From the NCBI GenBank assembly GCA_017991415.1, contig JAGOQR010000001.1, positions 212,490 to 276,489 of the forward strand: 64,000 nucleotides of DNA, read 5' to 3'. Numbering within the stretch: the stretch's first letter is position 1; each line of letters starts with the position of its first letter. A program made the translations under genes and the position numbers. The stretch is from Candidatus Magasanikiibacteriota bacterium. GTDB taxonomy: Bacteria; Patescibacteriota; Patescibacteriia; Magasanikbacterales; GWA2-37-8. The notes beneath the pieces were generated by a model. The model did no database searches. It was not told where the DNA came from and saw nothing but the letters and a program-made list of their open reading frames with translations. Shown in pieces: positions 3,457-44,870 of the stretch.

Positions 3457-3495
3457 AGAGACAATTAAGTTAGTAATGTCTAAAATTGATATTAC

Positions 3496-4020
3496 TTAGG
3501 TGTTACCTAAATTCTTACTGAGAACAGTAAAATCTTTACCCCACCAATGTTTTTTAAGAAGACCTTCCTGGGTATACCCCAAGCTTTTATAAAATTCAGG
3601 GGCCACCTCGGTAGTAAGCGTTATCTTGTGGCAGCCAAGACTAGCTAGCTCTGATTCAACTTTTTTTAATAAATTAGAACCGATTTTCTGTTTACGATAA
3701 TCACTTAAAACAAAAAGCCAATGAACTATGCCAATACTGGCATTATGACTGGCAATAATAAGACCTACGCACTTCCCACCAACTTTTGCTACAAAAATAG
3801 TTCTTTGCTTTCGTAAACGAGCAAAGAATAAACGACGCAAAGAGTTTTTCTTGATAATTCTTTTTTTTACCTGATCATTATAAAAAGAAAAGTCCGTAGT
3901 AACTGCCTGATCAAACAAAAATGGCAAAGAAAAAATATCCGTAATAGATGGCTTGCAAATGATTTGTTCGAGGGTATCTGACATAACTATAAGCAAAAAT
4001 TTTCCCGACTGGTTAGTCAA
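3496..4020 (-). CDS. GNAT-family N-acetyltransferase
   Basis: 174 aa with an acetyl-CoA binding-like segment (RKQKIGSNLLKKVESELASLGCHKITL). Confidence 0.65.
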   Translation of the reverse strand: MTNQSGKFLLIVMSDTLEQIICKPSITDIFSLPFLFDQAVTTDFSFYNDQVKKRIIKKNSLRRLFFARLRKQRTIFVAKVGGKCVGLIIASHNASIGIVHWLFVLSDYRKQKIGSNLLKKVESELASLGCHKITLTTEVAPEFYKSLGYTQEGLLKKHWWGKDFTVLSKNLGNT

Positions 4021-9433: not shown

Positions 9434-9865
9434 TTATTTTTTTGCACAAACACTACAAACGCCAAAAAACTCCAATGAGTGTTCGGTGAGCTTGGCAAAA
9501 CCAACTGAAGATAAAAAACTGTTGTTAATAATTTGCACAGCACACTTAGAAATATCTTTTATTTTACCACAACTACTACAAATAATATGGTGATGATGAT
9601 TTTTTTCAACCAGCTCGTAGTACGCTTGGCGGTCCTTTAAACGTATTTGTTTTAAAACCCCCAACTCTGCCAGAGCTTCCACATTTCTATATAACGTAAC
9701 CTTGTCTGCTTTTTTGTCTTTGAGCAACACAAAGATATCACTCACACTCAGTGGTTTTTTTGCATGCTTTAAAATATCCATCAACTTAAGGCGTGCGCCA
9801 GTGGATTTAAGCTTGCCTTTTTTAAGAATAGCAGCTGACTGCTCGTAATGCTCTTCACATTTCAT
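9434..9865 (-). CDS. zur: Fur-family metalloregulator, probably Zur
   Basis: 143 aa with a winged-helix N-terminus. His-rich HHHHIICSSCGK and a C-terminal CxxC pair. Divergent from znuABC. Confidence 0.7.
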   Translation of the reverse strand: MKCEEHYEQSAAILKKGKLKSTGARLKLMDILKHAKKPLSVSDIFVLLKDKKADKVTLYRNVEALAELGVLKQIRLKDRQAYYELVEKNHHHHIICSSCGKIKDISKCAVQIINNSFLSSVGFAKLTEHSLEFFGVCSVCAKK

Positions 9866-9888
9866 AGTGTGCCTATATTACCATAAAT

Positions 9889-9912
9889 GCAAATAACTTG
9901 CAAGTATTTTAA
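9889..9912. promoter_or_regulatory. candidate Zur/Fur-box operator (imperfect palindrome AAATAACTTGCAAGTATTT)
   Basis: Perfect 10-bp palindrome ACTTGCAAGT with AT-rich symmetric flanks in the divergent zur-znuA intergenic region. Confidence 0.35.
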
Positions 9913-9964
9913 ATATATGTTAGACTGCGAATATACTTATTAAATCCTAGATACATATACTCAT

Positions 9965-10915
9965 ATGAAAATAAAAAAAATATTTAAGATACTACTTATC
10001 GTACTTGGATGCATCACGCTCGCATTCTTAATCTTGCAAAAAATGGCCTTACCAGGTAACGCCCCTTCCTCACCGCAAGATATGCCTGAAAAACTACCAC
10101 TCCAAACTGCTGTCAGTTTCTACCCGTTAGCATTTCTTACCGAACGTATTTCAGGAAATTTGGCTATCATAACAAATGTTACCCCTCCTGGTATAGAACC
10201 ACACGATTTTGAACCAACCTCTCCTGATGTAGCCAAAATATATGGATCAAAGCTTTTTATCTTTAACGGCAATGGCGTAGATGCATGGGCCGAAAAACTA
10301 GCTCCCCAGTTAGAAAACTACCATGTTACCGTTATAAAAATGAGTAATCATATTGAATCTTTAAAATCAGGCTCAGAGAGCGAAGAAGGTTCGGATCCGC
10401 ATTTTTGGCTTGATCCAATAAATATGTCTACCCAAACAGATATTATTGCGGATGCTCTTATAAAAATTGACCCTGCCAACACCGAAGACTATAATAAAAA
10501 TAGAGCTGCTCTTAAACTAGATCTAGCACAACTTGATACAGAATATAAAAACGGCCTAGCCAACTGCCAACTCCATGAAATTGTTACTTCTCATAATGCA
10601 TTTGCGTATTTAGCAAAACGATATAATTTCAACACATTTCATATTTTAGGACTTTCTCCAGAAGAAGATCCTTCACCAAAAAACATAGCCGAGATAATTG
10701 ATGTAGCAAAAAATAAAAATATAAAATATATATTCTTCGAAACCATGGCGAGCCCTAAGCTATCACAGACTATTGCCCAAGAAATTGGCGCCACCACCCT
10801 GGTCCTCCATCCTATAGAAGGTCTGTCTGGAGAAGATATTAGTAATAATAAAGATTACCTACAGCTCATGCGGGAAAATCTAACAAACTTAAGGACAGCG
10901 ATGTTATGCAAATAG
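9965..10915 (+). CDS. znuA: metal (zinc/manganese) ABC transporter substrate-binding protein, ZnuA/TroA family
   Basis: 316 aa with a signal/anchor. Cluster-9 SBP fold with a His/Asp/Glu-rich loop (SGSESEEGSDPHFW). Confidence 0.75.
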   Translation: MKIKKIFKILLIVLGCITLAFLILQKMALPGNAPSSPQDMPEKLPLQTAVSFYPLAFLTERISGNLAIITNVTPPGIEPHDFEPTSPDVAKIYGSKLFIFNGNGVDAWAEKLAPQLENYHVTVIKMSNHIESLKSGSESEEGSDPHFWLDPINMSTQTDIIADALIKIDPANTEDYNKNRAALKLDLAQLDTEYKNGLANCQLHEIVTSHNAFAYLAKRYNFNTFHILGLSPEEDPSPKNIAEIIDVAKNKNIKYIFFETMASPKLSQTIAQEIGATTLVLHPIEGLSGEDISNNKDYLQLMRENLTNLRTAMLCK

Positions 10916-11658
10916 AACCAATAATCGAAGCCAAGAACCTGCATTTTAGTTATAACAATAGCCCTATTCTGGACAACATTTCTTTTGCTATCGAAAAGGG
11001 AGATTACGTAGGCATTATTGGCCCAAATGGAGGCGGCAAAACAACACTGCTGAAAATTTTAACAGGCCTCCTCAAACCTCAGTCTGGCTCACTTTCTATA
11101 CTAGGACAGGATATGGCTCAATTAAAAAACAGATCACAGATAGGCTACGTACCACAGCGAGTAGCCCAAGAAAATACTTCTTTTCCAGCCACGGTGTATG
11201 AAATTGTTGAAAGTGGTCTGATTGCTAAAAAAGGTTTAACAGGGAGCATTACTCAGTCAGATAAAGAAAAAATAGATGCGAGCTTAAAGGCTGCCGACAT
11301 ATTTGAACTAAAAAATCGGCTCATGAGCAGCTTGTCTGGAGGGCAACGACAACGAGTATATGTTACCAGAGCACTTGCAAGCGACCCACAAATACTTATC
11401 CTAGATGAACCATTTACCGGGGTTGATACTGCTTCTCAAAAAAATTTCTACGCATTTCTAAAAAAACTCAACACAGACAAGCATATTACCATTCTATTTG
11501 TTTCTCACGATATTGATACGATTACAGGAGAAATAAAATCGGTTTTATGTCTCAACCGCGGCTTATTCTGTTTTGGAGCCAAAGAAATTATGCATGCAGA
11601 AAATACGATTGAAAAAATATATGGCAAAGAAATAACTCATATTCATCATACTCGCTAA
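10906..11658 (+). CDS. znuC: metal ABC transporter ATP-binding protein
   Basis: 250 aa with Walker A GPNGGGKTT, signature LSGGQRQR and Walker B ILILDEP. The start overlaps the znuA stop by 10 nt. Confidence 0.85.
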   Translation: MQIEPIIEAKNLHFSYNNSPILDNISFAIEKGDYVGIIGPNGGGKTTLLKILTGLLKPQSGSLSILGQDMAQLKNRSQIGYVPQRVAQENTSFPATVYEIVESGLIAKKGLTGSITQSDKEKIDASLKAADIFELKNRLMSSLSGGQRQRVYVTRALASDPQILILDEPFTGVDTASQKNFYAFLKKLNTDKHITILFVSHDIDTITGEIKSVLCLNRGLFCFGAKEIMHAENTIEKIYGKEITHIHHTR

Positions 11659-11659
11659 T

Positions 11660-12460
11660 ATGCTCGATATTTTTCAGTACGACTTCATGGTACGAGCCTT
11701 TATTGCTGGTTTTATAATTGCTATTCTGGCGCCATCTATTGGTATATTTCTCGTAGTAAAAAGATACTCACTACTTACCGATACGCTCTCGCATGTGTCA
11801 CTAGTCGGTGTAGCCCTTGGATTACTCCTTGGCCTTAACCCAATTATTACCGCTATCTGCGTGTCAGCTATAGCAGCTCTTGGCATGGAAAAACTTCGCC
11901 ATAGTAAAAAAATTCTTGGGGAAGCCACACTTACCTTATTTTTATCAGGCGGCCTCGCGTTATCCCTAATTCTATTTAGTTTAAACAGGGGCTTAAATAC
12001 AAATATTTTTAGCTATCTTTTTGGAAGCATCGCTACCGTAACAACCTATGATTTATATCTTATGGGTGGATGCGGAGCAGTAATATTTTTATTAATTATA
12101 TTTTTATTTAAAAGATTTTTTATCGTTGCCTACGACGAAGAACTGGCTCAGGCCAATGGATTACCTATAAAATTTTTAAATTTTATCCTCATGATTTTGG
12201 CATCAATTGCCATATCTATCAGCATGCGTATTGTAGGCGCTTTGCTTGTTGGTGCGCTTATGGTTATACCAGTACTTGCTGCTACCCAATTTAACCATAG
12301 TTTTATAAAAACTTTTTTTTATAGTTTAGGCATCTCCCTCGCATCGGTAACTATGGGTCTATTTGCCTCCTTCTATATCAACTTGCCGAGCGGCGCAACT
12401 ATTGTTATGTCTGCGCTATTATTTTTTGCCCTCAGTTTAGTGATTAATAAAAAATCATAA
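11660..12460 (+). CDS. znuB: metal ABC transporter permease
   Basis: 266 aa, ABC-3 family permease with 8-9 TM helices. Starts 2 nt after znuC. Confidence 0.8.
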   Translation: MLDIFQYDFMVRAFIAGFIIAILAPSIGIFLVVKRYSLLTDTLSHVSLVGVALGLLLGLNPIITAICVSAIAALGMEKLRHSKKILGEATLTLFLSGGLALSLILFSLNRGLNTNIFSYLFGSIATVTTYDLYLMGGCGAVIFLLIIFLFKRFFIVAYDEELAQANGLPIKFLNFILMILASIAISISMRIVGALLVGALMVIPVLAATQFNHSFIKTFFYSLGISLASVTMGLFASFYINLPSGATIVMSALLFFALSLVINKKS

Positions 12461-12475
12461 TGTACGACCCAAAAC

Positions 12476-12507
12476 AAAAAACCACCCCGAAAGGTGGTTT
12501 TTTGTTT
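12476..12507. terminator. bidirectional rho-independent terminator
   Basis: CCACCCCGAAAGGTGG hairpin flanked by an A-run and a T-run, between convergent znuB and the csp gene. Confidence 0.7.
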
Positions 12508-12523
12508 TATAACTTGAAAGTTA

Positions 12524-12727
12524 TTAAGCGCGAACTACATTAGCTGCGCGAGGTCCTTTATCTGATTGTTCAACATCAAAGGAAACTTTGTCTCCTTTTT
12601 GTAAATCAGAAAATTGAAGACCATCACCAAGAGCAGAAGCGTGGAAGAAAATATCTTTTCCGCCATCGTCTGGAGTAATGAATCCAAAATTCTTTTCTAC
12701 GATAAGGCTTTTAATTGTACCTGTCAT
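12524..12727 (-). CDS. cold-shock protein (CspA family)
   Basis: Cold-shock domain signatures GTIKSLIVEKNFGFITPDDGGKDIFFHASAL. The true start is likely Met33 of the listed ORF; the longer ORF overlaps the upstream gene. Confidence 0.8.
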   Translation of the reverse strand: MTGTIKSLIVEKNFGFITPDDGGKDIFFHASALGDGLQFSDLQKGDKVSFDVEQSDKGPRAANVVRA

Positions 12728-12800
12728 ATTATTTTGTGATTGTGAATAAATTGATCGCTGGTCGAAGTCGACTACTTTTCCACCTGTGATTATTTGTATA

Positions 12801-13109
12801 TTAAGGCCTTGTAGGCTCATCACCGAAATCTGAACTATGCACTAATCCCATTTTCTTCAAAACATCATGTCTTTCGGCTTCAAGTTGCTTAGTAAATTCA
12901 GCACTAGGCTCTGTTTCTACTACTACCTCCACATCTTGGACCAAAGACCCATCATCCTCTACAGTAGTATCAAGCGGTGGCACGAAAAGCTCCTCTCCAT
13001 CCACAATTAGTTCGAGCACTGCCTTATCGTCGAGTACTTCCAACTGCCGCTTCTTGCCTACACCTTTTTCTTGATCGTACTGCCCAGAAAAACTTCCCGT
13101 TTCACTCAT
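12801..13109 (-). CDS. hypothetical acidic protein
   Basis: 102 aa, Asp/Glu-rich, no recognisable domain. Confidence 0.3.
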   Translation of the reverse strand: MSETGSFSGQYDQEKGVGKKRQLEVLDDKAVLELIVDGEELFVPPLDTTVEDDGSLVQDVEVVVETEPSAEFTKQLEAERHDVLKKMGLVHSSDFGDEPTRP

Positions 13110-13183
13110 ATGTAATAGTTATATAGTATGTATAGGTTAGTACTATATCCTACTTTACCCTAAAAGTCAACAGCTACTTAAGG

Positions 13184-13741
13184 CTACAACACACGGCTAT
13201 CGTATGCCCAATGCAACAGAGCTTGCCGCTGTCTTGGCCGACAGGTTACATCTCCTGGCCGACAATTTCTCTTGACTTGCATAATATGTCGACTAATAGC
13301 TTTCCAACGTTTTATCTGTCTCAAGTCTTCTGCAGGTAGTCTTCTACCCATATAATACCGACAATACCATTGAAACCACCCTCGCGGATCGTGCGCTTCA
13401 TTTATCCAGCCTTTAGCTCGCCACACCTGGAGAGACTGACTCGCATGCACATGGAAATAATTTAAAGATGCATCGCTTTGATTGGATGAAAGTTTTGCTC
13501 GAGTAAACCAACTTTTTGGAAATTCTTTTTGGCAATCAGTCATATATTTACCACCAAAAACTCCCAGCTCTAACATCTCTTTCGGCGTCAAATGAGGTTT
13601 AAAATCGGGATGAAAATTTCGACCAATTGGTTCGGAAAGAGTATATGCATATTCGGCCTGCATCGTATCTTTAACCATTACTATTTTGTTTTTTATAGGC
13701 ATACAGACAGGCAGGCTCCTAGATCTTTTTTGGGAACACAA
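13184..13741 (-). CDS. conserved hypothetical protein (Trp-rich GWFQWYCRYYMGRR motif)
   Basis: 185 aa, soluble, basic C-terminus. Not assignable from sequence alone. The start is probably internal (MQAEY...), given the overlap with TerC. Confidence 0.3.
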   Translation of the reverse strand: MCSQKRSRSLPVCMPIKNKIVMVKDTMQAEYAYTLSEPIGRNFHPDFKPHLTPKEMLELGVFGGKYMTDCQKEFPKSWFTRAKLSSNQSDASLNYFHVHASQSLQVWRAKGWINEAHDPRGWFQWYCRYYMGRRLPAEDLRQIKRWKAISRHIMQVKRNCRPGDVTCRPRQRQALLHWAYDSRVL

Positions 13742-14639
13742 TTGAGAGAACTATAGAAGATAGCAAGGCAAACATAATGATAGCAAAAGACATAAGCGAA
13801 GAAATATGAAAATCAAATATGCCAGAAAGCATTTTTAAACCAATAAATAATAAGATAAATGCCAAACCTTTTTGCAGATGATGAAATTTATGAAGCACGC
13901 TTTCAATTAAAAAGAACAGGGCACGTAAACCCATAATAGCGAAAATATTTGAAGTAAATACGATAAAAGGGTGCTGCGAGATAGCAAATACAGCTGGGAT
14001 AGAATCAACAGCAAAAATAATATCTGTACCTTCTACTAATAACATAACTAAAAATAGCGAAGTGAGAACAGTTTTACCGCCTTCTTTAACAATAAAATGC
14101 CCACCATGATGATTTGGAGAAAATGGTAATAATTTTCTAGCCCATTTGATAATAAAGTTTTTTTCAAAATCAATATGTTCTTCTTTTTTATCTTGAAGCA
14201 ACTTAACGCCTGTATACAGCAGTAATGCGCCAAAAATATATAAGACCCAATGAAACTGACTGATAATAAGAGAGCCAAAGCCAATAAAAATTGCTCGAAA
14301 AACTATTGCGCCCATTATTCCCCAAAATAACACGCGATGATGGTATTTTTCTTCTAACTTAAAATAACTAAAGATTAACATAATTACAAACAGATTATCT
14401 ACCGAAAGCATCTTTTCTGTAACATACGCGCTTAAAAACTCAGCTGCTAATTCTTTGCTGAGGAATAAAAAAATTAAAAAACCAAAGCCAAGTGAAATTG
14501 CTACCCAAAATAAAGATTGATTAATCGCAGAACTCAGCTCAACTTTATGGACTTTACGATTAAAATATCCTAAATCAAGAGCCAAAAAACCAACAATAAT
14601 TATGCCGAATAATATCCAAAGACCGGTTTGAGCATCCAT
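13719..14639 (-). CDS. TerC-family integral membrane protein
   Basis: 306 aa, multi-TM, with the conserved TerC motif ...KMLSVDNLFV. Confidence 0.7.
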   Translation of the reverse strand: MDAQTGLWILFGIIIVGFLALDLGYFNRKVHKVELSSAINQSLFWVAISLGFGFLIFLFLSKELAAEFLSAYVTEKMLSVDNLFVIMLIFSYFKLEEKYHHRVLFWGIMGAIVFRAIFIGFGSLIISQFHWVLYIFGALLLYTGVKLLQDKKEEHIDFEKNFIIKWARKLLPFSPNHHGGHFIVKEGGKTVLTSLFLVMLLVEGTDIIFAVDSIPAVFAISQHPFIVFTSNIFAIMGLRALFFLIESVLHKFHHLQKGLAFILLFIGLKMLSGIFDFHISSLMSFAIIMFALLSSIVLSIVFPKKI

Positions 14640-14730
14640 AGGAAAAAATTAAATAATAAACACATGAATAATTTATCTATTAAGTATAGCAATTAGGCAT
14701 AAAATAACAAGGATTTGAGTGGTTTTTATA

Positions 14731-14759
14731 TTGACAAAACAGCTAAAATATGCTATAGT
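14731..14759 (+). promoter_or_regulatory. consensus sigma-70 promoter TTGACA-N17-TATAGT
   Basis: TTGACA at 14731-14736, exact 17-nt spacer, TATAGT at 14754-14759. SD AAGGAG at 14771-14776 and ATG at 14785. Confidence 0.6.
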
Positions 14760-14784
14760 GGCTCCCAAATAAGGAGCCCTCGAA

Positions 14785-15006
14785 ATGAACGAACCCTTTC
14801 AACCCTTCGTCTGCGATTGGGACGATGAAAATCAGGGGATTCGTTTATTTGTCGAAGAAACCATCCCTCATTTTTTAATCGCGATTCTCATCGCAATTGC
14901 GCTAAAAAGGTGGAAATGGGACCCAAATCAAGAGCACGAAAAGGTCACTATTCCTACGGCACTCGCACCCCCAACCAGGAGAAGACGGTCATGGATCGAA
15001 TCTTGA
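14785..15006 (+). CDS. small hypothetical protein (first gene of GC-rich island A)
   Basis: 73 aa. Perfect SD AAGGAG 8 nt upstream. Contains one hydrophobic helix. Overlaps the next small ORF by 16 nt. Confidence 0.35.
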   Translation: MNEPFQPFVCDWDDENQGIRLFVEETIPHFLIAILIAIALKRWKWDPNQEHEKVTIPTALAPPTRRRRSWIES

Positions 15007-15221
15007 AGATTCTGGCAGTGATGGTTCTGGTGCTCGCAAGCATCATCGTCCTGTGCTACCTCTGCACGAGCGCCTACCTACTCGTCAACTGCCTGCTCTG
15101 GGGAGACGATGACCCCACCGCCATCGAGGAGATGTTCTCGATCCTTCTGAGCCTTGTTGTCGTTTTCAGCCTCGTTGCTGGGGCTGTGACGCACAGGCGC
15201 GACACGAACATGAAGGAATGA
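14991..15221 (+). CDS. small hypothetical membrane protein (second gene of GC-rich island A)
   Basis: 77 aa (MDRILKIL...) with two hydrophobic helices. SD AGGAGA upstream. GC-rich codon usage unlike the flanking genes. Confidence 0.35.
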   Translation: MDRILKILAVMVLVLASIIVLCYLCTSAYLLVNCLLWGDDDPTAIEEMFSILLSLVVVFSLVAGAVTHRRDTNMKE

Positions 15222-15247
15222 GGCAAGAGGAGAACCGCCTCCTCGCA

Positions 15248-15318
15248 CAAGCCACTCGGCAAGTCACCAAGTTTTTAATACGGATTGAAAGTTTGGTGAC
15301 GGGTGGCTTGTTTTTTTA
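15248..15318. terminator. rho-independent terminator (long interrupted stem plus T7)
   Basis: CAAGCCAC...GTCACCAA pairs with TTGGTGAC..GTGGCTTG, followed by TTTTTTT. Downstream of both island A (+) and the antiporter gene (-). Confidence 0.6.
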
Positions 15319-15321
15319 TAT

Positions 15322-16272
15322 TTATTTATTAGCAAAAAATTCTACCAAAACAAAGATAAGCCAAAATAAAAACAATAAATAACTTTCTCTTTTTGAAAGA
15401 GATTTTCCAGAACGCATAAAAAGAAATAAAATTACTGAAGCTGCCACCATAAATACACCTGTAATATAAATGATCTTTTGTGAAACAGAAAATGGATTGA
15501 TGAGTGCCAGAATACCAACTACCACGGTTGCATCGGCAAGGACTGTGCCAAGTATGTCCCCCACTGCCAAATCATCGTCTTGTTTTTTAACAGCCTGTAT
15601 TGCAAAAAATAATTCAGGCATCGTGGTACCCAAACCGACAAGCAGCATGCCAATTAAAATTGGATTTATATGAAGTAAGTTGGCAAAATTAACTGCAGAG
15701 GTTACCGTAAAATGAGATCCAACAATAAGTATTGCCATTCCCAAAAGCAACATGAAGAAATTTTTATACGGTGAGTGCTTACTTTTTTGAGCCTTAGAAA
15801 AATCAGAGCCACTCTTAAAAGCCATATAATAAAATACTGCTCCAAAAATTATAAGGGCCAGACCCTCTACTCTCGAAAAATAACCATCAATACCCAATAC
15901 AAGAGGTACGAGTAATAAAAAAGGGTATGCAATATTTTTTTTCAAAATTTTACTTTCAATTTTTATTCCACGCTTAGCAAATAAAATAATAATAGTAAAA
16001 ATTAACGTCATATCTGCCACATTGGACCCAAATAAAGTACCCAACCCGAACGAAGACATTCCAGCCAACGCAGAGTTTATCGCTACAAATGTTTCGGGCA
16101 AAATAGAAATAATGGCTACCACAATAAATCCAACCGTGTATTTGGACAAACCAAAGCTACTCGCCAAGTTGCCCGCATATTTGGTTGAAAAAGTTGCCCC
16201 TTTTATTACCAAGGCAAGCGCACAGATAAAGATAAAAATGCTTTCTACCATACTATTTTTTATTCTTCCCAC
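15322..16272 (-). CDS. CaCA-family sodium/calcium (cation:H+) antiporter, YrbG-like
   Basis: 316 aa, 10 TM, with duplicated alpha-repeat motifs GSNVADMT and GDILGTVLADATVV. Confidence 0.7.
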   Translation of the reverse strand: MGRIKNSMVESIFIFICALALVIKGATFSTKYAGNLASSFGLSKYTVGFIVVAIISILPETFVAINSALAGMSSFGLGTLFGSNVADMTLIFTIIILFAKRGIKIESKILKKNIAYPFLLLVPLVLGIDGYFSRVEGLALIIFGAVFYYMAFKSGSDFSKAQKSKHSPYKNFFMLLLGMAILIVGSHFTVTSAVNFANLLHINPILIGMLLVGLGTTMPELFFAIQAVKKQDDDLAVGDILGTVLADATVVVGILALINPFSVSQKIIYITGVFMVAASVILFLFMRSGKSLSKRESYLLFLFWLIFVLVEFFANK

Positions 16273-17645
16273 CGCTGATCTGTTGGATCAAAAATTGATT
16301 TTGACATTTCCTCGTTATTTAAAAACTTGGATATCCTGCTCGCACCGTATATGGATGGCAAAATACCAACCCCATTGCAACCAAGATTATATAGTAAAAC
16401 TGGGTTAATAGGTTCGGGGCCAACCCGACGAATACCGTTAGGCGTATACCCCATAAGCCCATGCCAGCAGAACCAATATTTGTTTTCTTCCGCTGGAAAT
16501 TTATTATAATTATCAAGCAAAAAATCATCTACAGCATTTTTTACTTCTTCGGAACAAGAGTCCTCTCTCGTATATTCTGCCCCATTTGGCAACACCTTTT
16601 CTGGGCCACCTGTACAAACCAAATTATATGTTTTTTTACCTTCATGTTCATGCGGACGGCGCGTCAGATAAAAATAACTTTCACCTGTTGGGTCCTCTAC
16701 TTCTTTCGCTTTAGGAAAATAACTTATAGCGGTCGGCGGATGATTGAGCGGCTCTACGTAACCAGACATATACCCAATTCGCCCTGCCACTGTAGCATGA
16801 AATTTTGTATCTATTTCTACCCCTACCTCATTAATAATTTTAAAATTTTCAAAACCATTTGTACACAAAACTATTTCTTTTGCCCCGACTTTATAATCTA
16901 ATACCTCAACGCTACCCAACCCATCTTGCAAACGAACAATACTCGCTGGACTACCCTCATAAAAACTAAACCTGCCTTTATAACTTGCAATTAAATATCC
17001 AATTAATTCTTCCGAGAATAAGGCGCTATTGGTACAGCCTTTCTGATACGAAAGCGCTGCTATATAATTCTTATTAGTTGTTTCAAGCAGTGCCAAAATA
17101 TCTTTTTGTTCCGTTATAGAATACAGATCACTATATTCAGCTGGCACATCTTTTAATCCGTCCCACTCTTTGGCAATAACTATGCTTTCTGTTGGCATAC
17201 CGCCCTGAACACGACACCTATTATTTTTTAAATGGACTAATAACTGCTCCATATTGGAAAAACCAGCATAACCAGTAAAACGATATATCGGTGTCTGCAA
17301 CTGAGCTTCCGTAACTATTGCATCAAGCAAACTCCAGGCAGATTCAACAGATCGCTGACCATCAATGGCCATATCGAGCCCAAACTCTTTTACTATATCA
17401 TGCAAAGGCCTCTCAAAATAACTTGTAATTTGGCCAGCATTGTGGCCAGTAGCTCCATGGGCAATTTTATCAGCCTCAAGCAACATAACGTTTTTATCAG
17501 TATTTCGTAATGTAAAAAAGGCTGTTGTTACACCAGCTATCCCCCCTCCCACAATAACGACATCTGTTTGCACATCCTGAGATAGTGGCACAACAGGACG
17601 AGTACGTTTTAATTCTTTTATCCAAGGCGAATGATTAGGAATCAT
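16260..17645 (-). CDS. FAD-dependent oxidoreductase (DadA/glycine-oxidase-like)
   Basis: 461 aa with an N-terminal Rossmann dinucleotide motif VVIVGGGIAGVTTAF. Confidence 0.65.
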   Translation of the reverse strand: MIPNHSPWIKELKRTRPVVPLSQDVQTDVVIVGGGIAGVTTAFFTLRNTDKNVMLLEADKIAHGATGHNAGQITSYFERPLHDIVKEFGLDMAIDGQRSVESAWSLLDAIVTEAQLQTPIYRFTGYAGFSNMEQLLVHLKNNRCRVQGGMPTESIVIAKEWDGLKDVPAEYSDLYSITEQKDILALLETTNKNYIAALSYQKGCTNSALFSEELIGYLIASYKGRFSFYEGSPASIVRLQDGLGSVEVLDYKVGAKEIVLCTNGFENFKIINEVGVEIDTKFHATVAGRIGYMSGYVEPLNHPPTAISYFPKAKEVEDPTGESYFYLTRRPHEHEGKKTYNLVCTGGPEKVLPNGAEYTREDSCSEEVKNAVDDFLLDNYNKFPAEENKYWFCWHGLMGYTPNGIRRVGPEPINPVLLYNLGCNGVGILPSIYGASRISKFLNNEEMSKSIFDPTDQRWEE

Positions 17646-17700
17646 AAAAATGGTGTTTATATAGCTATAAGTTTATCAAAAAATGAATATTTTACCAAAT

Positions 17701-17731
17701 AAAATGACCCTTTATATTAAAGGGTCATTTT
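17701..17731. terminator. rho-independent terminator (palindromic hairpin TGACCCTTTATATTAAAGGGTCA)
   Basis: Perfect stem flanked by an A-run and a T-run, downstream of the minus-strand RGG/zinc-ribbon gene. Confidence 0.65.
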
Positions 17732-17748
17732 TAGCCTCGGGAGTAATA

Positions 17749-18285
17749 TTATTTTTTCTTTTTAGAAGCTGTTTTTTTCGCTGCTGATTTTGCTTTAACG
17801 AGAGGCTCTTTTGTCTTTTTTGCTTCTTGCACTGGCTTTTCAGCACTCACTGTAGCAGCTGGAGCCAAAGCCTTTAAAATTTTATCCAACTTAATATGGA
17901 GCGCTTCAAGCTGTTGTTTGATCTGGTCGTTGCCTCCGTTTCCACCGCCAAAAGCAGGTTTTTTATCAAAACTTGGTCGGCCAAAACTATTACCACCAGA
18001 CCTCATCGGCGCGTCGTGTTTTTTATCTTTAAAACAATTACTGCAAAAGACTTCTCTGTCGCCAGTTGGTCTAAAAGGAACTTGGCAAGGCTTACCACAT
18101 TGGCTACATGTTGCATCGTGCATTTGAGGCTTACCAAAACTACCGCCCCCACCAAATTTACGGTCACCGCCAAACCTGCCACCACGGTCTCCACCGCCAA
18201 AACTTTTTCCACCAAAATCTCGTCTTCCAAATCTGCTACCACCTCTGTCTCCGCCTGAACGATTGTCGCGATTAAAACTACCCAT
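17749..18285 (-). CDS. RGG/Gly-Arg-rich protein with a CxxC-x17-CxxC zinc-ribbon and Lys-rich C-terminus
   Basis: 178 aa. N-terminal GGDRGG/RFG repeats, then CSQC-x17-CSNC (matches the CxxC-x17-CxxC domain pattern), a second RGG-like block and a KKxxKK tail. Confidence 0.5.
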   Translation of the reverse strand: MGSFNRDNRSGGDRGGSRFGRRDFGGKSFGGGDRGGRFGGDRKFGGGGSFGKPQMHDATCSQCGKPCQVPFRPTGDREVFCSNCFKDKKHDAPMRSGGNSFGRPSFDKKPAFGGGNGGNDQIKQQLEALHIKLDKILKALAPAATVSAEKPVQEAKKTKEPLVKAKSAAKKTASKKKK

Positions 18286-18345
18286 ACTATTATATTAAAT
18301 ACTTAAAAAACGATTTTACCTTACTTTAGCATAAAATACAATAGC

Positions 18346-18885
18346 TTGAGTATTTTAGATAAAAAATGGTATTATCTATACACTATGCAAGTACCATATA
18401 GAAAACCTGGAAAATACAGCCAGATAAAGCCAGATCCCATGCTCACTGCAGAAAAAGCCCGAGAGCTTGAAAACAAACTGGACAGACTTAAAAACTTTAG
18501 CCGCCCAAAGGCAGCTGAGGAAGTACGGAGACTAGCCGAACTTGGTGATTTTTCTGAAAATGTAGAATACCAGCTCGCCAAAGGAAGGTTGCGAGGAATA
18601 AATAATGGCATCTTATCTATAGAAAACCAGCTCAAACATGCCGAGATCATCACGCCTCAACAGCAAACAGATACAGTAAGTATTGGCCATACTGTTACCA
18701 TACACAATGGAAAAAACAACAAAACATACCTAATACTTGGCTCTTCAGAAACTAATCCACAACAAGGAATAATTTCACATATTTCTCCTCTTGGATCAGC
18801 CCTCCTCGGCAAAAAAATTAATGATACTGTACAAGTAAAAACAGGAGATAGAGAAACTAGTTACAAAATTATCGAAATAAAATAA
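18346..18885 (+). CDS. greA: transcription elongation factor GreA
   Basis: N-terminal coiled-coil (LTAEKARELENKLDRLK...AEEVRRLAELGDFSENVEYQLAK) and C-terminal FKBP-like domain. The start may be internal. Confidence 0.85.
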   Translation: MSILDKKWYYLYTMQVPYRKPGKYSQIKPDPMLTAEKARELENKLDRLKNFSRPKAAEEVRRLAELGDFSENVEYQLAKGRLRGINNGILSIENQLKHAEIITPQQQTDTVSIGHTVTIHNGKNNKTYLILGSSETNPQQGIISHISPLGSALLGKKINDTVQVKTGDRETSYKIIEIK

Positions 18886-18886
18886 A

Positions 18887-18918
18887 GCTACTCGTAATGT
18901 GAGTAGCTTTATTTTATT
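18887..18918 (+). terminator. rho-independent terminator after greA
   Basis: GCTACTCG-TAATGT-GAGTAGC hairpin followed by a T-run. Confidence 0.7.
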
Positions 18919-18926
18919 GCCTAGGA

Positions 18927-19961
18927 TTATTTTTTCCAAATATACACTACGAGCCTCCAACCATACTTAGCAGCGAAGAGTACTATGAGCGCGTAGATAA
19001 AATATGGAATCAGAGTAAAGAGCAAACCGATAAGATTGATAGAAGCATCCTGTAAAGCCCTGTTAATCGTGAAGACAAAATTTTTCACCGCAGCTTGCCA
19101 AGAATCTTTTAAATTTTTACCATCTATATATTTATTTTCATAGACGCTTACACTAAAATAGGTATATTCAAGCCTGTCCATTTGCTCTGTCTTTGCTCTG
19201 GCTAAATAATCTAGCTGCTGATTAATATTTATTCGCTCCTGAGTCATACGTTCTATTAACTGCACCTTACTATCAATAATTTTTGCAAGACTTGAAGCAT
19301 CTTGCGTTTTAACTGCAAGTGCCGTAATTTGATCGTAGGCCGTTAATGCATTTTTTAATGTCTCATCAATCGAAGCTCGTTTCTTTTCTAAAATTTCGGT
19401 TTGACTCGTAAAATCATCTATCTGGCTTTTGATAGTACGGGTATTTTCAGATAAATCCTTTGGATCAAAATCTTTGATAACTGCTAAAATTTCTCCAGCC
19501 CGAACATGCTCTACCTTGAATGTATAAGCACAATTACGATCGGATTCTTGCGCGTTTTCAAAAATAACATGCTTTAATGATTTTAGATTTGCAATTTGAC
19601 TGCAGACCTCAGCTTTGTTTCCTGTTTCTATTACAGCGCTATAATCTGTTACTTCAAAATCTTCAGCTGTATTTCCGATTGTAGTCTGTGATTGCATCAG
19701 CGCCGTATTTCTATAGGACAGATCGGCAATAGGCATGCCTTTTGAAGAATCCATGGCTATCTCTCCCATACGAGCACTGCCATAAAAACTTGGGGCAACC
19801 GAAGAAACACTTTCTCCTGTATGAGGAGTCAGAAAAGGGCGGACGGAGGAATTTATTAAACTGAGAACAAACACGACCGCCACTACTCCAAATAAGCCCA
19901 GCACCGCTACCTTAAATAAATGTAAGGGTTTTTTAAGATCTATATCTTTTAAAAATTGCAT
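18927..19961 (-). CDS. hypothetical membrane protein with central coiled-coil (DUF4349-like architecture)
   Basis: 344 aa with N-terminal TM, an extended coiled-coil and a C-terminal TM helix. Confidence 0.35.
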   Translation of the reverse strand: MQFLKDIDLKKPLHLFKVAVLGLFGVVAVVFVLSLINSSVRPFLTPHTGESVSSVAPSFYGSARMGEIAMDSSKGMPIADLSYRNTALMQSQTTIGNTAEDFEVTDYSAVIETGNKAEVCSQIANLKSLKHVIFENAQESDRNCAYTFKVEHVRAGEILAVIKDFDPKDLSENTRTIKSQIDDFTSQTEILEKKRASIDETLKNALTAYDQITALAVKTQDASSLAKIIDSKVQLIERMTQERININQQLDYLARAKTEQMDRLEYTYFSVSVYENKYIDGKNLKDSWQAAVKNFVFTINRALQDASINLIGLLFTLIPYFIYALIVLFAAKYGWRLVVYIWKK

Positions 19962-20115
19962 ATATTTTAGTTACATTAATAGACTTATAATAACTCTATA
20001 CAGATATAATGCCTCAACAAGGCAATATGTTACAGATACAAGTAATTATACCATATACTACAATAAGCATTTTCGGGTTGACCAGCTATTTCTTCTCAGG
20101 TAATCTTAGATTACT

Positions 20116-20961
20116 ATGAATCACTATCACACAATAAAAAAGGCAATAGAGCTTATAAGCACGGATCGCGCGGACGATTATACTTTTTTAAACGTAGCTC
20201 AATCTTTAAAAATAAGCCCGAGCCATTTACGTAAAATTTTTATTGAATGGACAGGTATTAGCCCTAAACAATTTGATAGATATTTAACACTTACTAAAGC
20301 TAAAAACTTTTTAAGTCAACATAAAAATCATATACAAACGAGCCTTCTCTCTGGACTTAGTAGCGGCGGTCGACTCCATGATTTATTTGTTAATATCGAA
20401 GCCATGACACCAGGTGAGTACCAACATGGCGGAGCCAACCTAACTATACACTACTCAGTTTTTGAAAGTAGGTTTGGCACTGTTCTTGTTGCTTCTACCA
20501 ATCGAGGCGTATGCAATATACTATTTTGCAACAACATAAAAGATGGTCTGGCAGACTTAACAAAACGCTGGCCTAATGCCAACATTCTCCACAAAATAAA
20601 ACCGTCCCACCGAGTCATTCAAAAATATTTTACCCATTTAAAATCAACTTCAAAAATAAAATTTCATGTGCATGGCACCAACTTTCAAATCAAAGTATGG
20701 GAAGCCTTACTCTCTATTCCTCTTGGCATACATACTACCTATGGCAGCATTGCAGCCCATATTGGCAAACCAAAAGCAGTGCGGGCAGTCGGCAGTGCTA
20801 TTGGCGACAATCCTGTTTGCTATATTATCCCCTGCCACCGCGTCCTTCGATCAAATGGCGATATCGGTGGCTACTACTGGGGAGTAGATCGAAAACGAAC
20901 TATGCTTACGTATGAAGAAATAAAAAATAATGGCCACTTGAACCATTATTTTAAAATATAA
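20116..20961 (+). CDS. Ada-like bifunctional protein: AraC-type HTH regulator fused to methylated-DNA-protein-cysteine methyltransferase (Ogt/MGMT)
   Basis: 281 aa. N-terminal AraC HTH. C-terminal MGMT active site IPCHRVL and the helix-turn-wing DNA-binding region. Confidence 0.8.
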   Translation: MNHYHTIKKAIELISTDRADDYTFLNVAQSLKISPSHLRKIFIEWTGISPKQFDRYLTLTKAKNFLSQHKNHIQTSLLSGLSSGGRLHDLFVNIEAMTPGEYQHGGANLTIHYSVFESRFGTVLVASTNRGVCNILFCNNIKDGLADLTKRWPNANILHKIKPSHRVIQKYFTHLKSTSKIKFHVHGTNFQIKVWEALLSIPLGIHTTYGSIAAHIGKPKAVRAVGSAIGDNPVCYIIPCHRVLRSNGDIGGYYWGVDRKRTMLTYEEIKNNGHLNHYFKI

Positions 20962-20967
20962 TTTAAT

Positions 20968-21162
20968 CTACAACGAGTCTGTCTTAGGTCGATTTAATTT
21001 ACCTGCAGCAACTGGATTTGGAAATTTCTTTTTGGTAACCCATTTTTTTCTTTCATCGATCTGATACTTGCCTGTCTTCTGTGGCGAATCACCCTCATCG
21101 GACTGAGAAGCCTTGGCGGCTTTTAACTTATCAATCTGTTTTTTATACCATTTCATACTCAT
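20968..21162 (-). CDS. small basic hypothetical protein
   Basis: 64 aa, Lys-rich, no known domain. Confidence 0.25.
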   Translation of the reverse strand: MSMKWYKKQIDKLKAAKASQSDEGDSPQKTGKYQIDERKKWVTKKKFPNPVAAGKLNRPKTDSL

Positions 21163-21173
21163 TATAATTAATT

Positions 21174-21653
21174 CTAATACTGCGACTTATCAACAAATTT
21201 TTCTCGATAATAATAGAGAACACCAAGAGGCACGGCATCAATTGCAAGAGTTACTACATTCAAAAAGAAATAAATACCTCCATCTCTACCTGGCAGCAAC
21301 ACTGAAATGAGCGCACCTACAAAACTTAACCCCATTATCACCATGGCGCCAACATACGCTTTTTTTTCCATTTTGGCTATTAATCGTGCGTACTTAATAA
21401 TAATGAGCCCTATAATAATAGGGATTAAACCGAGCCCAAAAACTAACAGCATTCGCGCACCTCGTAAAATACAAGCGACTCCAGAAAACCACATCAAAAT
21501 AATAACAAACCGCAACTGCCACGGCAGTTTGCCCGAATTAGCTGAATCTAATTTTTGAGCGTTCACCTCGGAATTGGCTACTTGGCTTGGAGAATCTTCC
21601 ATAGTACACATGTATAATACTAAAATTGTAACAATAAACAAAAAATTCTGCAA
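21174..21653 (-). CDS. hypothetical membrane protein (4 TM)
   Basis: 159 aa, hydrophobic helices only. Confidence 0.35.
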   Translation of the reverse strand: MQNFLFIVTILVLYMCTMEDSPSQVANSEVNAQKLDSANSGKLPWQLRFVIILMWFSGVACILRGARMLLVFGLGLIPIIIGLIIIKYARLIAKMEKKAYVGAMVIMGLSFVGALISVLLPGRDGGIYFFLNVVTLAIDAVPLGVLYYYREKFVDKSQY

Positions 21654-21679
21654 CTACTTTTTTCAAGAAAAGTTTATTA

Positions 21680-23017
21680 TTATATAAAAAATAGATAGAT
21701 AGCGCTACTAAAAATAATGACCAGCGCAGAAATAAAAAATTTAAAAGCAAACTGTTTTGTGCCCTGCAAATAAGAATACACTGTTTTACTAATTAAATTG
21801 GTAGCATTTACTAAAATAAAAGTAATAAATGCAAATTCAAAAGTAATGCTATGCCCAGCCATATCAGCTAAATTTACTAGAATTGCATCAAGCCCAGCCA
21901 GCGATGCAATTACAGAACTAATGACAAACCCTGATTTACCAAAGACTAATAATGATACCTTTGTAATGATTTTTACTGCAATTAAAATGCCTGCAAACTT
22001 GAGCGCAGGCATTAGAGAAAATATTTTTGTTGGTTTTACTTCTTGGCTTGGCGATTCATCTGACTCCTTTTTCTTTAAAAGAACTAGAGCAATAAACCCC
22101 GCCACTAAAATCATCAGCAAAATGCTCGGAGCAATCGAAACAAGCCATTTCGGATTTAATGGACCTACCAATAAAAATATTTGCAAAAAACTGGCTAGGT
22201 TAGCAAGTAGCGCTGCCCCAACTAGATGATTGGCAAAAGAAGAATGCTTACTTTTTTGAGCAAGCGACTGAGTTGCAGAAGTAGAAGAAACAAACCCTGC
22301 AATAAAACTAGTAAGAGCAAACCCTTTTTTATTACCAATAATTTTTCCTAAAATATATCCAAATACATCAATGCCTGTAATAAGAACAACGATAAACCAA
22401 ACTTTACGTGGATTAATGAGTTCCAAAGCACTAAACTGTCCCATTTCGACACCTATACCATTTAGAATAGCTGGCAAAACTGGAAGATCAGAAAGTTTAT
22501 AAGCAACATCAGGCAGAAACGGTAAAACAACTAAAGCAATAACTGCATAACTAATAAAAGACTGTAACTCTTCTCGAGAAATACCAGCAATTAATTGACT
22601 GGTCTTGGATTTTACCGATAAGACAAGCATGAGAATAACAAAAACTGCAACAATTATCTGCAACGGAATAATATCGAGCACCAACAATAAGCCAATTAAA
22701 AAAGTAATAATAACCGAAAGTTCTGTAGTAAGACCGAAATCTTTGGTTACAGAGACACCAGATATATAGTACGAGATAAGTAGCACTAAGAAACCGCCTG
22801 CAATAAGCAGCGCTAAGGAAGCAAAATTATGTACAAAAAATATACCAACGAGTGCTCCGATGAGAGCAATAAGTGAATACGTACGAATACCGCCCAAGGC
22901 GCTAGGCCCTTGTTTACTACCTTCTCGCTCCAAACCAATGGTTGCTCCCAAAATAATTGCTAATACTAATTTAGAAAATAATCCTGTAAACATGCAATAA
23001 ATGTTATAATTTATCAA
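21680..23017 (-). CDS. MgtC/SapB-family membrane protein with C-terminal DUF4010-like domain
   Basis: 445 aa. N-terminal MgtC signature LAIILGATIGLEREGSKQGPSALGGIRTYSLIALIGA. Polytopic. Confidence 0.6.
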   Translation of the reverse strand: MINYNIYCMFTGLFSKLVLAIILGATIGLEREGSKQGPSALGGIRTYSLIALIGALVGIFFVHNFASLALLIAGGFLVLLISYYISGVSVTKDFGLTTELSVIITFLIGLLLVLDIIPLQIIVAVFVILMLVLSVKSKTSQLIAGISREELQSFISYAVIALVVLPFLPDVAYKLSDLPVLPAILNGIGVEMGQFSALELINPRKVWFIVVLITGIDVFGYILGKIIGNKKGFALTSFIAGFVSSTSATQSLAQKSKHSSFANHLVGAALLANLASFLQIFLLVGPLNPKWLVSIAPSILLMILVAGFIALVLLKKKESDESPSQEVKPTKIFSLMPALKFAGILIAVKIITKVSLLVFGKSGFVISSVIASLAGLDAILVNLADMAGHSITFEFAFITFILVNATNLISKTVYSYLQGTKQFAFKFFISALVIIFSSAIYLFFI

Positions 23018-23059: not shown

Positions 23060-23092
23060 AAAATCACTTCGTACAATGTACGAAGTGATTTT
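23060..23092 (-). terminator. palindromic hairpin terminator (AAAATCACTTCGTACA/TGTACGAAGTGATTTT)
   Basis: 16-bp perfect inverted repeat with a T-rich stretch after it on the minus strand. Downstream of the island B gene. Confidence 0.55.
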
Positions 23093-23103
23093 ATATTTGG
23101 GAT

Positions 23104-23162
23104 TCTCCAGAGCGCTTCTGGGGCCAATTATTTTTGGCACAAGAAGCGCAAACTCTGGAGAA
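23104..23162. repeat. long imperfect inverted repeat (TTCTCCAGAGCGCTTCT ... AGAAGCGCaaaCTCTGGAGAA)
   Basis: About 18-bp stem with a 3-nt bulge and 21-nt loop, directly 3' of the high-GC gene. Possible terminator or recombination-site remnant. Confidence 0.4.
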
Positions 23163-23205
23163 TTTCTATTTCTCAAAGAGCGCGCTTACTGCTTAGCAAC
23201 CTTGA

Positions 23206-23847
23206 TCAGGCAGCCTTCTTGGAAGCGTTCTCCGACTCGCTGTTGAGGAGCTCGAGGATCGAGGCGAACTGCGACTCGCCGAGGCTGCCGCTCTTCCACT
23301 TGTTCTGGAGGAGCTGACCCACCGTCTGCTGCTGCCCCTTGGATCCGGTGCGGCATCGGAGGGCCTTGCCATCCGAGAGGTGGAACACCTCCGCGTTGCG
23401 GGGGCTGCCGTCCTTCTTGAGGACCAGAACCACCTTGATCACGCCGCACTGCCTGGCGAAGGTCCGCATGGACGCGAAATCCGGGGACCGAGCGGGCTTG
23501 ACGACCGAGGGGTTCGGCGACAGCGGCACGGGGCTGCTGGGGATCTTGACCTTGTTGCTCTCGACCACGATCTTGGGGTCGAACATGCGGAGCTTGGAGC
23601 CCTGGAGCTGGTTGTAGGCCCAGCGCGACACGCCGGGCATCCAGTTCTTGCACTGCTCGATGAGGATCGCCTCGCGCGAACCCGCGAACTCAACCGACTC
23701 GAAGCGGTTGTTGTGATCCACCCGGAACAGGCGCTCCACTCCCTTGAAGTACACGTAGGTGCCTCGAGACGAGGTGCAGGACTGACCGAGGTGGCGAGCG
23801 GGCAAGTTGTTCGTACGCTGCTTGGCGTGAACGAGAATCTTCTTCAT
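23206..23847 (-). CDS. hypothetical protein encoded by high-GC island B (foreign composition)
   Basis: 213 aa starting MKKILVHAKQRTNNLPARHLGQ.... ATG at 23847 with a perfect SD AAGGAG 6 nt upstream. GC-rich codons (GCC/CTC/GAG/CGC) in an AT-rich genome. The longer 268-aa ORF in the track runs through the leader and is unlikely to be the real N-terminus. No confident family match. Confidence 0.5.
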   Translation of the reverse strand: MKKILVHAKQRTNNLPARHLGQSCTSSRGTYVYFKGVERLFRVDHNNRFESVEFAGSREAILIEQCKNWMPGVSRWAYNQLQGSKLRMFDPKIVVESNKVKIPSSPVPLSPNPSVVKPARSPDFASMRTFARQCGVIKVVLVLKKDGSPRNAEVFHLSDGKALRCRTGSKGQQQTVGQLLQNKWKSGSLGESQFASILELLNSESENASKKAA

Positions 23848-24015
23848 CGTGATCTCCTTGGAACGAAACGTGGGCGGCGATCCCATAACAGGATCACCAG
23901 AAATGGTGCAGTAGTTTCTCTCTGATTTTGATGCCCAAAAAAGACAACAAAAACAGAGAGAAACAACGCGTATCTTTGAATTGTAAAGAAATTGTTGCCT
24001 AAAACGCAACAAAAC

Positions 24016-24044
24016 AATATACCATAAAAATCAACTTTTGTCAA
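24016..24044 (-). promoter_or_regulatory. consensus sigma-70 promoter TTGACA-N17-TATATT (minus strand)
   Basis: Minus-strand TTGACA at 24044-24039, 17-nt spacer, TATATT at 24021-16. AT-rich leader of about 165 nt to the ATG at 23847. Confidence 0.55.
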
Positions 24045-24081
24045 TGTACCCTAAAAAACAAAAGGAAGGACATTTACAAAT

Positions 24082-44850: not shown

Positions 44851-44870
44851 TCAGACCACAAGGTCAGATC

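Follow-up and report, generated by a model that had tools for sequence, protein, structure and literature searches.

Island A is a GC-rich patch at positions 14731–15316 of the window, the 64,000-nucleotide stretch of contig JAGOQR010000001.1 that was analyzed, in a 37% GC genome of the Magasanikbacteria (Candidate Phyla Radiation (CPR)/Patescibacteria). It lies on the plus strand between two minus-strand genes, a TerC-family gene and a Na/Ca-exchanger-family gene (Na_Ca_ex). Our analysis favors, with somewhat better than even confidence, a vertically inherited, clade-restricted, bicistronic operon that encodes two small membrane proteins with an accessory, non-toxic role. This overall confidence blends two parts of different strength. 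That Island A is a genuine coding operon, passed on vertically and belonging to an orphan protein family, is established with high confidence by the comparisons described below. An accessory and non-toxic function for its products is a tentative proposal drawn from sequence and genomic context.

Organization of the Island A operon

Transcription of Island A is predicted to begin at a sigma-70-type promoter, TTGACA-17-TATAGT, on the plus strand (14731–14759). The −35 element is at 14731–14736, the −10 element is at 14754–14759, and an extended −10 TG is found at 14751–14752. The first-pass annotation of the window had described the same TTGACA-17-TATAGT promoter, and it is present as claimed. 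The site scores 11 of 12 and is the top site in a 3-kb consensus scan, in which the total number of promoter-like sites was not above that of shuffled sequences. The Island A promoter is beyond chance because it is conserved in a related metagenome contig (L002), where 32 nt of the promoter region are identical to the window, and because it is placed equivalently in other lineages. A TTGACAAA-type promoter at the equivalent position is exact in six lineages (L006–L010 and L019), and L004 has TTGACC. The −35 element, the 17 ± 1 nt spacer, the −10 element, and the TG one base upstream together give it the composition of an extended −10 promoter.

The first open reading frame (ORF1; 14785–15006, plus strand) encodes a 73-residue single-pass membrane protein. 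The second (ORF2; 14991–15221, plus strand) overlaps ORF1 by 16 nt in a different frame and encodes a two-helix membrane hairpin. The coordinates of ORF2 and the overlap were given correctly in the first-pass annotation, but its length is 76 residues rather than 77. ORF1 is preceded by a Shine–Dalgarno (SD) sequence, AAGGAG (14771–14776, plus strand), located 8 nt before the ATG at 14785 and identical in L002. ORF2 has its own SD, AGGAGA (14977–14982, plus strand), located 8 nt before the ATG at 14991 within the 3′ end of ORF1 and conserved in L002. These sites, which had also been noted at first pass, are read directly from the sequence. The ORF1 leader is short (~19 nt), and leader folds were not better than those of shuffled sequences (z from −2.3 to +1.1), consistent with open, unstructured leaders and strong SD sites. 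A 5′ hairpin that sequesters the SD (GGCUCC...GGAGCC and its analogs) was considered and rejected: a transcription start ~7 nt past the −10 element puts the anti-SD strand outside the transcript.

Topology prediction yields one transmembrane (TM) helix in ORF1 and two in ORF2, in agreement with the initial description. The charge distribution of ORF1 places an acidic N-terminal tail (net −6) outside, a TM helix at about residues 28–40, and a basic C-terminal tail (+4) inside. The same analysis places both ends of ORF2 inside and an acidic WGDDDP loop (−5) outside; its C-terminal tail, THRRDTNMKE, is charged. The AlphaFold2 model of ORF2 is a plain helical hairpin with helices at residues 2–37 and 44–75 (pLDDT 70). 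The Cys-rich TM helix mentioned at first pass exists in ORF2 of the window, but its cysteines are not a conserved feature of the family.

The unit closes with a bipartite hairpin terminator followed by a run of seven T residues (15247–15316, plus strand; stem at 15247–15309, T7 at 15310–15316), within a few bases of the strong terminator earlier placed at 15248–15318. Its predicted free energy is −34.1 kcal/mol (z = −7.3). In the window the hairpin consists of a basal stem of ~11 bp, a 5-nt internal loop, and a 17-bp upper stem, or ~28 bp in total, and this unusually long stem is why a simple terminator scanner missed it. The hairpin is unique within the window, and the terminator ends 5 nt before the stop codon (15322–15324) of the convergent Na_Ca_ex gene.

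Both reading frames are coding

A homolog of ORF1 (P0003) that is 76% identical was found on two ENA metagenome contigs (L002 and L003). Both contigs are syntenic with the window, and the order of TerC, the unit, Na_Ca_ex, and a zinc-finger gene is kept. Both ORFs are open in L002 at a neighbor-gene synonymous divergence (dS) of ~0.65. The ORF2 ortholog in L002 is ~55% identical, and the three indels that separate the two sequences (12, 3, and 15 nt) are all in frame. In a six-frame control that compared the window with L002, the annotated frame of each ORF was the only one that both lacked stops and had an excess of synonymous change (binomial p = 0.0027 for ORF1 and 0.0076 for ORF2). In the remaining frames pN/pS (the ratio of nonsynonymous to synonymous change) was 0.43–1.5. 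ORF2 is 31–37% identical at the protein level to the corresponding proteins of L010 and L009, loci to which the island DNA gives no blastn match. Both ORFs are read as coding because the frames are open in L002, the indels are in frame, and the synonymous excess is frame specific. The first-pass annotation had held that a lack of conservation in related genomes would speak against its description; conservation of both ORFs was found.

The gene calls of assembly GCA_020049755.1 (JAHZTO010000001.1; L001 9419–9855) include ORF1 and omit ORF2. A sister assembly annotates ORF2 (KBC69_01235, MBP6859232.1), and ORF1 has no NCBI name or accession in the collection. Two public annotations thus each seem to miss one cistron of the overlapping pair.

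An orphan membrane protein family between TerC and Na_Ca_ex

The two flanking genes were used to locate related units. The TerC-family gene occupies 13719–14639 on the minus strand (PF03741, 6e-53), and Na_Ca_ex occupies 15322–16272 on the minus strand (PF01699, 4e-41). A scan of the genome collection with the Na_Ca_ex protein returned 18 loci, and Na_Ca_ex and TerC are still adjacent in eight of these. Seven of the eight spacers carry an opposite-strand, GC-rich insert of ~0.5–2.4 kb, comprising a promoter plus one or two short ORFs of 72–103 residues with two TM helices. The island-bearing lineages number nine, the window and eight related loci. In L005 the spacer is empty (73 nt) and retains the TerC promoter alone.

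The similarity of ORF2 to the L010 and L009 proteins extends over 65–70 residues, and the three proteins share the motif YLLV....W.G..P together with a small-residue motif in helix 2. The sequence links to the proteins of L006, L007, L008/L019, and L004 are weak, and these count as positional orthologs only. These comparisons identify ORF2 as a member of an orphan two-helix membrane family that occupies the Na_Ca_ex/TerC slot of related species.

Database searches returned the family and little else. A profile search of a 5.8-billion-protein database recovered only the ORF2 family's own members, and an exhaustive HMMER search of 1.84 billion representatives recovered these members plus two extra matches (P0007 and P0008), which were rejected as tandem-repeat artifacts. 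Sequence searches of Pfam, PHROGs, PADLOC, NCBIfam, and the PDB gave nothing significant, a Foldseek search with the ORF2 model gave no match (best E = 7.6), and literature searches gave nothing relevant. Three Pfam families were approached below their curated cut-offs: DUF202 (YidH-like) by ORF2 (14.6 bits, cut-off 23.4), DUF6338 by a 103-residue extension (18.8 bits, cut-off 26.5), and DUF3302 by the L006 ortholog (22.7 bits, cut-off 32). These are mutually different families, none of known function, and the matches most likely reflect composition-driven similarity between hydrophobic segments. The idea that ORF1 is a truncated paralog of the ORF2 family was rejected (hhalign probability 1.3%), and hidden Markov models of both proteins found no paralogs elsewhere in the window.

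Island A is inherited vertically

Evolutionary rates were compared in three species pairs. Between the window and L002, the ratio of nonsynonymous to synonymous divergence (ω) is 0.27 for ORF1 and 0.41 for ORF2, and it is 0.01–0.05 for the flanking genes. The small ORF has an ω of 0.26 in the L009a/L010 pair (flanks, 0.04) and 0.48 in the L008/L019b pair (flanks, 0.12–0.13). In these last two pairs the small-ORF dS is close to that of the flanks, and the nonsynonymous divergence (dN) is 3–8 times higher. The ORF dS matches the flanks across all three pairs. These data indicate weak, frame-specific purifying selection and vertical co-divergence with the neighboring genes, with no net positive selection. 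A neighbor-joining tree of the flanking proteins, computed without bootstrap, places L005 inside the island-bearing clade as the sister of L004. Because L005 nests within this clade, its empty site is a loss; by this tree the ancestor of the clade already carried the unit, and a single loss followed.

Possible functions of the two proteins

A second conserved RNA structure bears on how the proteins may be made. A predicted mRNA hairpin covers the ORF1 start codon (14780–14855, plus strand); 14780–14791 pairs with 14842–14855 around two inner helices, so that the AUG is paired with codons 20–24. The free energy is −27.5 kcal/mol in the window (z = −2.9) and −26.0 kcal/mol in L002 (z = −3.7). 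All 24 consensus pairs are kept between the two sequences, with three compensatory changes and none broken. The probability that the AUG is unpaired is 0.01, and the SD is free. Comparable occlusion of the AUG occurs in L008 and L019 and is absent from L006, L007, and L009b. Start-codon occlusion was rejected as a family-wide trait, being confined to the window/L002 and L008/L019 lineages. The hairpin is probably a lineage feature that damps ORF1 initiation.

We propose that Island A is highly expressed and that its mRNA would be stabilized by the 3′ hairpin and the GC-rich body. Initiation at ORF1 would be damped by the hairpin over its AUG, and ORF2 would use its own SD for translation, perhaps with coupling to ORF1. 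Both products are predicted to be membrane residents that possibly assemble into a small hetero-oligomer. They would be abundant, dispensable, and nonlethal accessory proteins with a possible influence on the envelope or on the neighboring cation transporters. The link to the transporters is suggested by conserved adjacency: the unit keeps its position next to TerC and Na_Ca_ex in 10 loci, on the opposite strand and with a separate promoter.

Several points weigh against this proposal. The accessory, non-toxic, and transporter-linked function is read from context and negative results only. Island A is on the strand opposite to both transporter genes and therefore outside their operon, Na_Ca_ex has no such small-ORF neighbor in more distant genomes, and adjacency within a closely related clade may be general synteny. 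Homology is demonstrated only among the window, L002, L010, and L009, and the links to L006, L007, L008/L019, and L004 are weak; the flanking-protein tree is an unbootstrapped neighbor-joining tree. Finally, the AUG hairpin, the tandem duplications seen in some lineages, and the rapid divergence would also fit toxin-like or competition loci.

The last point leads to the interpretation offered at first pass, that the products resemble type I toxins, holin-like peptides, or membrane-active effectors. The physical description was accurate, in that Island A encodes small hydrophobic membrane proteins from a terminated unit with a strong promoter, but a toxin or holin identity was not supported. 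In its full form this interpretation describes a type I toxin-antitoxin-like or holin-like module, whose peptides permeabilize the membrane and are checked post-transcriptionally or by a partner peptide. ORF2 has the generic outline of a class II holin (76 residues, two TM helices, and a charged C-terminal tail). The conserved hairpin of about −27 kcal/mol that buries the ORF1 AUG is the one feature that recalls toxin mRNAs, and the family shows tandem duplication, fast evolution, and one loss. However, searches for toxin, holin, defense, or immunity families in Pfam, PHROGs, PADLOC, and NCBIfam gave no match for the ORFs or for the tested ORF2 relatives. An antisense RNA opposite the second ORF had been raised as a possibility, but a consensus scan of the unit in the window, L002, and L010 found no opposite-strand promoter. 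There is no endolysin, phage, or plasmid context. Type I toxins are usually shorter than 60 residues, have a single TM helix, and belong to a recognized toxin family, and both Island A products are longer. The strong SD sites and open leaders on both cistrons, the absence of AUG occlusion from several lineages, and a chromosomal position that is stable over deep divergence also argue against a toxin or holin. We consider such a module improbable, and a toxin restrained by an antitoxin unlikely.

Conserved arms and a divergent coding segment

A bipartite hairpin occurs at the equivalent position in nine of the nine island-bearing lineages. Its basal stem is either CAAGCCAYCC/GGGTGGCTTG or AAAGCCGYCC/GGRYGGCTTT, and it is followed by a small internal loop, an AU-rich upper stem of 13–17 bp, and a T-run. 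An RNAalifold analysis of 11 sequences (nine from these lineages plus L025 and L028) gave 25 consensus pairs, nine of which have compensatory double changes. By this comparison no other element of Island A is as well conserved as the 3′ hairpin. We interpret it as a strong intrinsic terminator and probable 3′ stabilizer, shared by descent across the clade and employed at several genes. A metagenome scan for the hairpin signature (CAAGCCAYCC...GGGTGGCTTG-T run) found that it also closes unrelated promoter–ORF units in L022 (1931–1994), L025 (5738–5801), and L028 (4695–4756), which suggests a reused or mobile terminator module. The proteins ahead of these hairpins have 136, 115, and 136 residues, respectively, with N-terminal hydrophobic segments and raised GC content at third codon positions (GC3).

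Family units are tandemly duplicated in L009 and L019. The L009 spacer (2813–3862) contains two tandem units that arose by whole-unit duplication, which included a fragment of the TerC start and the promoter. The flanks of the two units are 93–100% identical and the 68-nt terminator is 100% identical, but the ~330 nt from the −10 element to the stop codon are essentially unalignable and the ORFs are only ~35% identical. This mosaic implies that genes were converted or cassettes exchanged via the conserved arms.

The base composition of the unit is unusual in every lineage. As described at first pass, the GC content rises sharply along the unit, from 0.39 (14700–14899) to 0.57 (15000–15199) in a genome of 0.37. 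GC3 exceeds 0.7 in only three of the ~70 genes in the window: ORF2 (0.73–0.77), the ORF of Island B (0.81), and the ORF of Island C (0.78). All other genes are at 0.19–0.39, except one doubtful 76-residue ORF at 0.50. Codon optimization for high expression was rejected as the cause, with the cold-shock gene at only 0.24 within that range. The small ORFs have a GC3 of 0.48–0.77 in the different lineages, compared to 0.26–0.46 in their own flanks. Among third positions that are G/C in one of the window and L002 genomes, 16–23% are A/T in the other for ORF2, compared to 40% for Na_Ca_ex (p = 0.04 and 0.006). Third positions that are A/T in the window are G/C in L002 in 47% of cases for ORF2 and in 18% for Na_Ca_ex (p = 0.013). 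The GC-rich composition appears to be actively maintained, rather than decaying like a foreign remnant, because the G/C third positions of ORF2 are retained better than those of Na_Ca_ex. The cause may be selection acting on the structure or stability of the mRNA, biased gene conversion, or import of alleles.

These features raise the possibility that Island A is a variable cassette, in which the promoter and hairpin serve as homology arms and GC-rich alleles for small membrane proteins are swapped by recombination under a diversifying pressure, such as strain competition or interaction with a host or phage. The L009 units fit this interpretation, as do the promoter and terminator that are kept where ORFs are unalignable, the identical hairpin type that closes unrelated genes in other genomes, and a GC3 well above the host level in all lineages. 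On the other hand, ORF and flank dS match in three close species pairs, a sign that the ORFs diverged together with their flanks and were not replaced, and ω is below 1 throughout. With dN 3–8 times that of the flanks, simple fast drift would suffice to remove similarity at the deeper nodes, the conserved promoters and terminators can be accounted for by functional constraint, and no donor pool was found in phage, plasmid, or protein collections. As an explanation of Island A, a variable cassette is improbable.

Foreign-origin and RNA-gene alternatives

Recent insertion of a foreign islet from a GC-rich donor between Na_Ca_ex and TerC is very unlikely. The GC3 of 0.77 against 0.26–0.30 in the flanks, its rarity among the window genes, the empty spacer in L005, and a 10-nt direct repeat, TTTTTATATT, at both edges of the island were the points in its favor. 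The repeat was rejected as a target-site duplication, since it is missing from the empty site in L005 and from other lineages. Positional orthologs occur across the clade, dS equals that of the flanks, and the nested position of L005 makes its empty site a loss. Better retention of G/C third positions than in the neighboring gene is the opposite of amelioration, and searches of phage and plasmid DNA gave no match to Island A. Together these results largely refute a recent foreign insertion.

Island A, a GC-rich stretch with a promoter and a terminator in an AT-rich genome, has the classic appearance of a structured RNA gene, and its plus strand folds better than shuffled sequences (z = −4.9) whereas the minus strand does not (z = −1.5). 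The 5′ and 3′ hairpins are both conserved with compensatory changes. A structured non-coding RNA with incidental ORFs, or in a weaker form a dual-function RNA, is nevertheless highly improbable given the in-frame indels, the synonymous excess and stop-free frames found only where ORFs are annotated, and the protein similarity that outlasts any blastn match; the terminator also contributes much of the plus-strand folding score. A known RNA gene was rejected: a search of Island A against Rfam 15 gave no family at the gathering score or at E values up to 10 (best permissive matches ≤26 bits against cut-offs ≥44), and ARAGORN found no tmRNA.

Neighboring genes and other GC-rich units

A divergent TerC promoter, TTGTTA-16-TATACT with a TG (14683–14710, minus strand), lies back-to-back with the Island A promoter, with ~20 bp between the two −35 elements. 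It belongs to the neighboring context and is outside the Island A transcript. The TerC promoter element TGCTATACT is found in all related loci, including the empty site in L005. Upstream of Na_Ca_ex, and overlapping it, is a DAO oxidoreductase gene. The wider region (9434–23017) is a metal and cation homeostasis cluster that includes Fur, ZnuA/ABC/ABC-3, TerC, Na_Ca_ex, and MgtC/DUF4010. In L004 (4928–7316) a gene for a 588-residue Na+/H+ exchanger (PF00999, 4e-46) lies on the strand of the small ORF between the small-ORF terminator and Na_Ca_ex, which gives three cation-transporter genes around the small ORF in that slot.

The window has two further GC-rich units. Island B (23060–24050, minus strand) contains an ORF for a 214-residue protein (23206–23850), a promoter, TTGACA-17-TATATT, near 24044–24016, and a perfect 16-bp terminator hairpin at 23060–23092. 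The Island B protein has no match in Pfam, PHROGs, PADLOC, NCBIfam, the PDB, or viral sequences, and the exact protein is not in a 15-billion-protein collection. Island C (44152–45030, plus strand) contains an ORF (44293–44850) for a 185-residue predicted lipoprotein with the lipobox LGGC. Its promoter is TTGACA-17-TACACT at 44152, its leader is ~110 nt, a 15-bp perfect inverted repeat lies at 44873–44932, and the terminator is near 45005–45030. The Island C protein is an orphan except for identical copies in sister assemblies (MBP6859262.1) and has no viral relatives. An additional GC-rich patch (up to 0.53) at 52239–52423 lies in a 400-nt gap between the genes at 51482–52180 and 52581–53807. 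It has no Rfam match at the gathering score and contains only the doubtful 76-residue ORF (52262–52492; GC3 0.50). This patch could be an unrecognized RNA or another small gene.

Speculatively, and with a small chance of being correct, Island A is an instance of an undescribed expression slot, in which a strong promoter and a long hairpin bracket a hypervariable, GC-rich membrane or envelope gene. Through the conserved arms, copies and strains would exchange or convert their coding segments, and biased conversion or mRNA selection would uphold the GC-rich codon usage. Islands B and C would be further members of this class, as would the hairpin-terminated units in L022, L025, and L028. If true, these episymbiont-like bacteria could use such a slot in competition between strains or in interaction with a host.

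Small membrane proteins are widespread and little understood, above all in CPR bacteria, and our results add one orphan family of this kind. Less ordinary are the GC-rich codon usage kept through deep divergence in an AT-rich genome, the GC-favoring substitutions a few hundred bases from a normally AT-biased gene, and the near-identical promoter and terminator arms around an unalignable coding segment, which the L009 tandem copies show most clearly. If a general mechanism, driven by recombination or acting at the RNA level, is responsible, it would bear on the variable envelope repertoire of reduced genomes and on what sets local base composition in bacteria. If conserved arms around a variable core prove to be a general pattern, they would define a previously undescribed variable expression slot in CPR bacteria.

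Comparison with known systems

Type I toxins (the Hok, TisB, Ldr, Ibs, Fst, and AapA types) resemble Island A in being small hydrophobic peptide genes in intergenic slots, with strong promoters, structured mRNAs (here the occluded ORF1 AUG), tandem duplication, and rapid turnover. They differ in that Island A has no antisense promoter and no family match, its products have 73–76 residues with two TM helices in ORF2, and its leaders are open with strong SD sites. Class II holins and pinholins have 65–95 residues, two TM domains, and a charged C terminus. ORF2 shares this generic outline, with 76 residues, two TM helices, termini predicted to be inside, and a charged C terminus. However, the neighbors of Island A are TerC, Na_Ca_ex, and the DAO oxidoreductase gene and not an endolysin, spanin, or prophage; it has no PHROGs or phage DNA match, and it is chromosomal, syntenic, and vertically inherited. 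Integron gene cassettes are a poor fit: Island A has its own promoter, is a single unit, and has no integrase nearby. The base of its hairpin reads CAAGCC...GGCTTG followed by a T-run, with no attC core sites (RYYYAAC / GTTRRRY).

KdpF, MgtS, MntS, and AcrZ are small bacterial membrane proteins that serve transporters as accessory or regulatory subunits. Island A has no sequence relationship to these proteins, has two cistrons and an anomalous GC3, and is transcribed from the opposite strand with its own promoter and terminator rather than from inside a transporter operon. It is like them in encoding proteins of fewer than 100 residues with one or two TM helices, in being lineage restricted and poorly conserved, and in its position beside cation-transport genes, here Na_Ca_ex and TerC and, in L004, the Na+/H+ exchanger.

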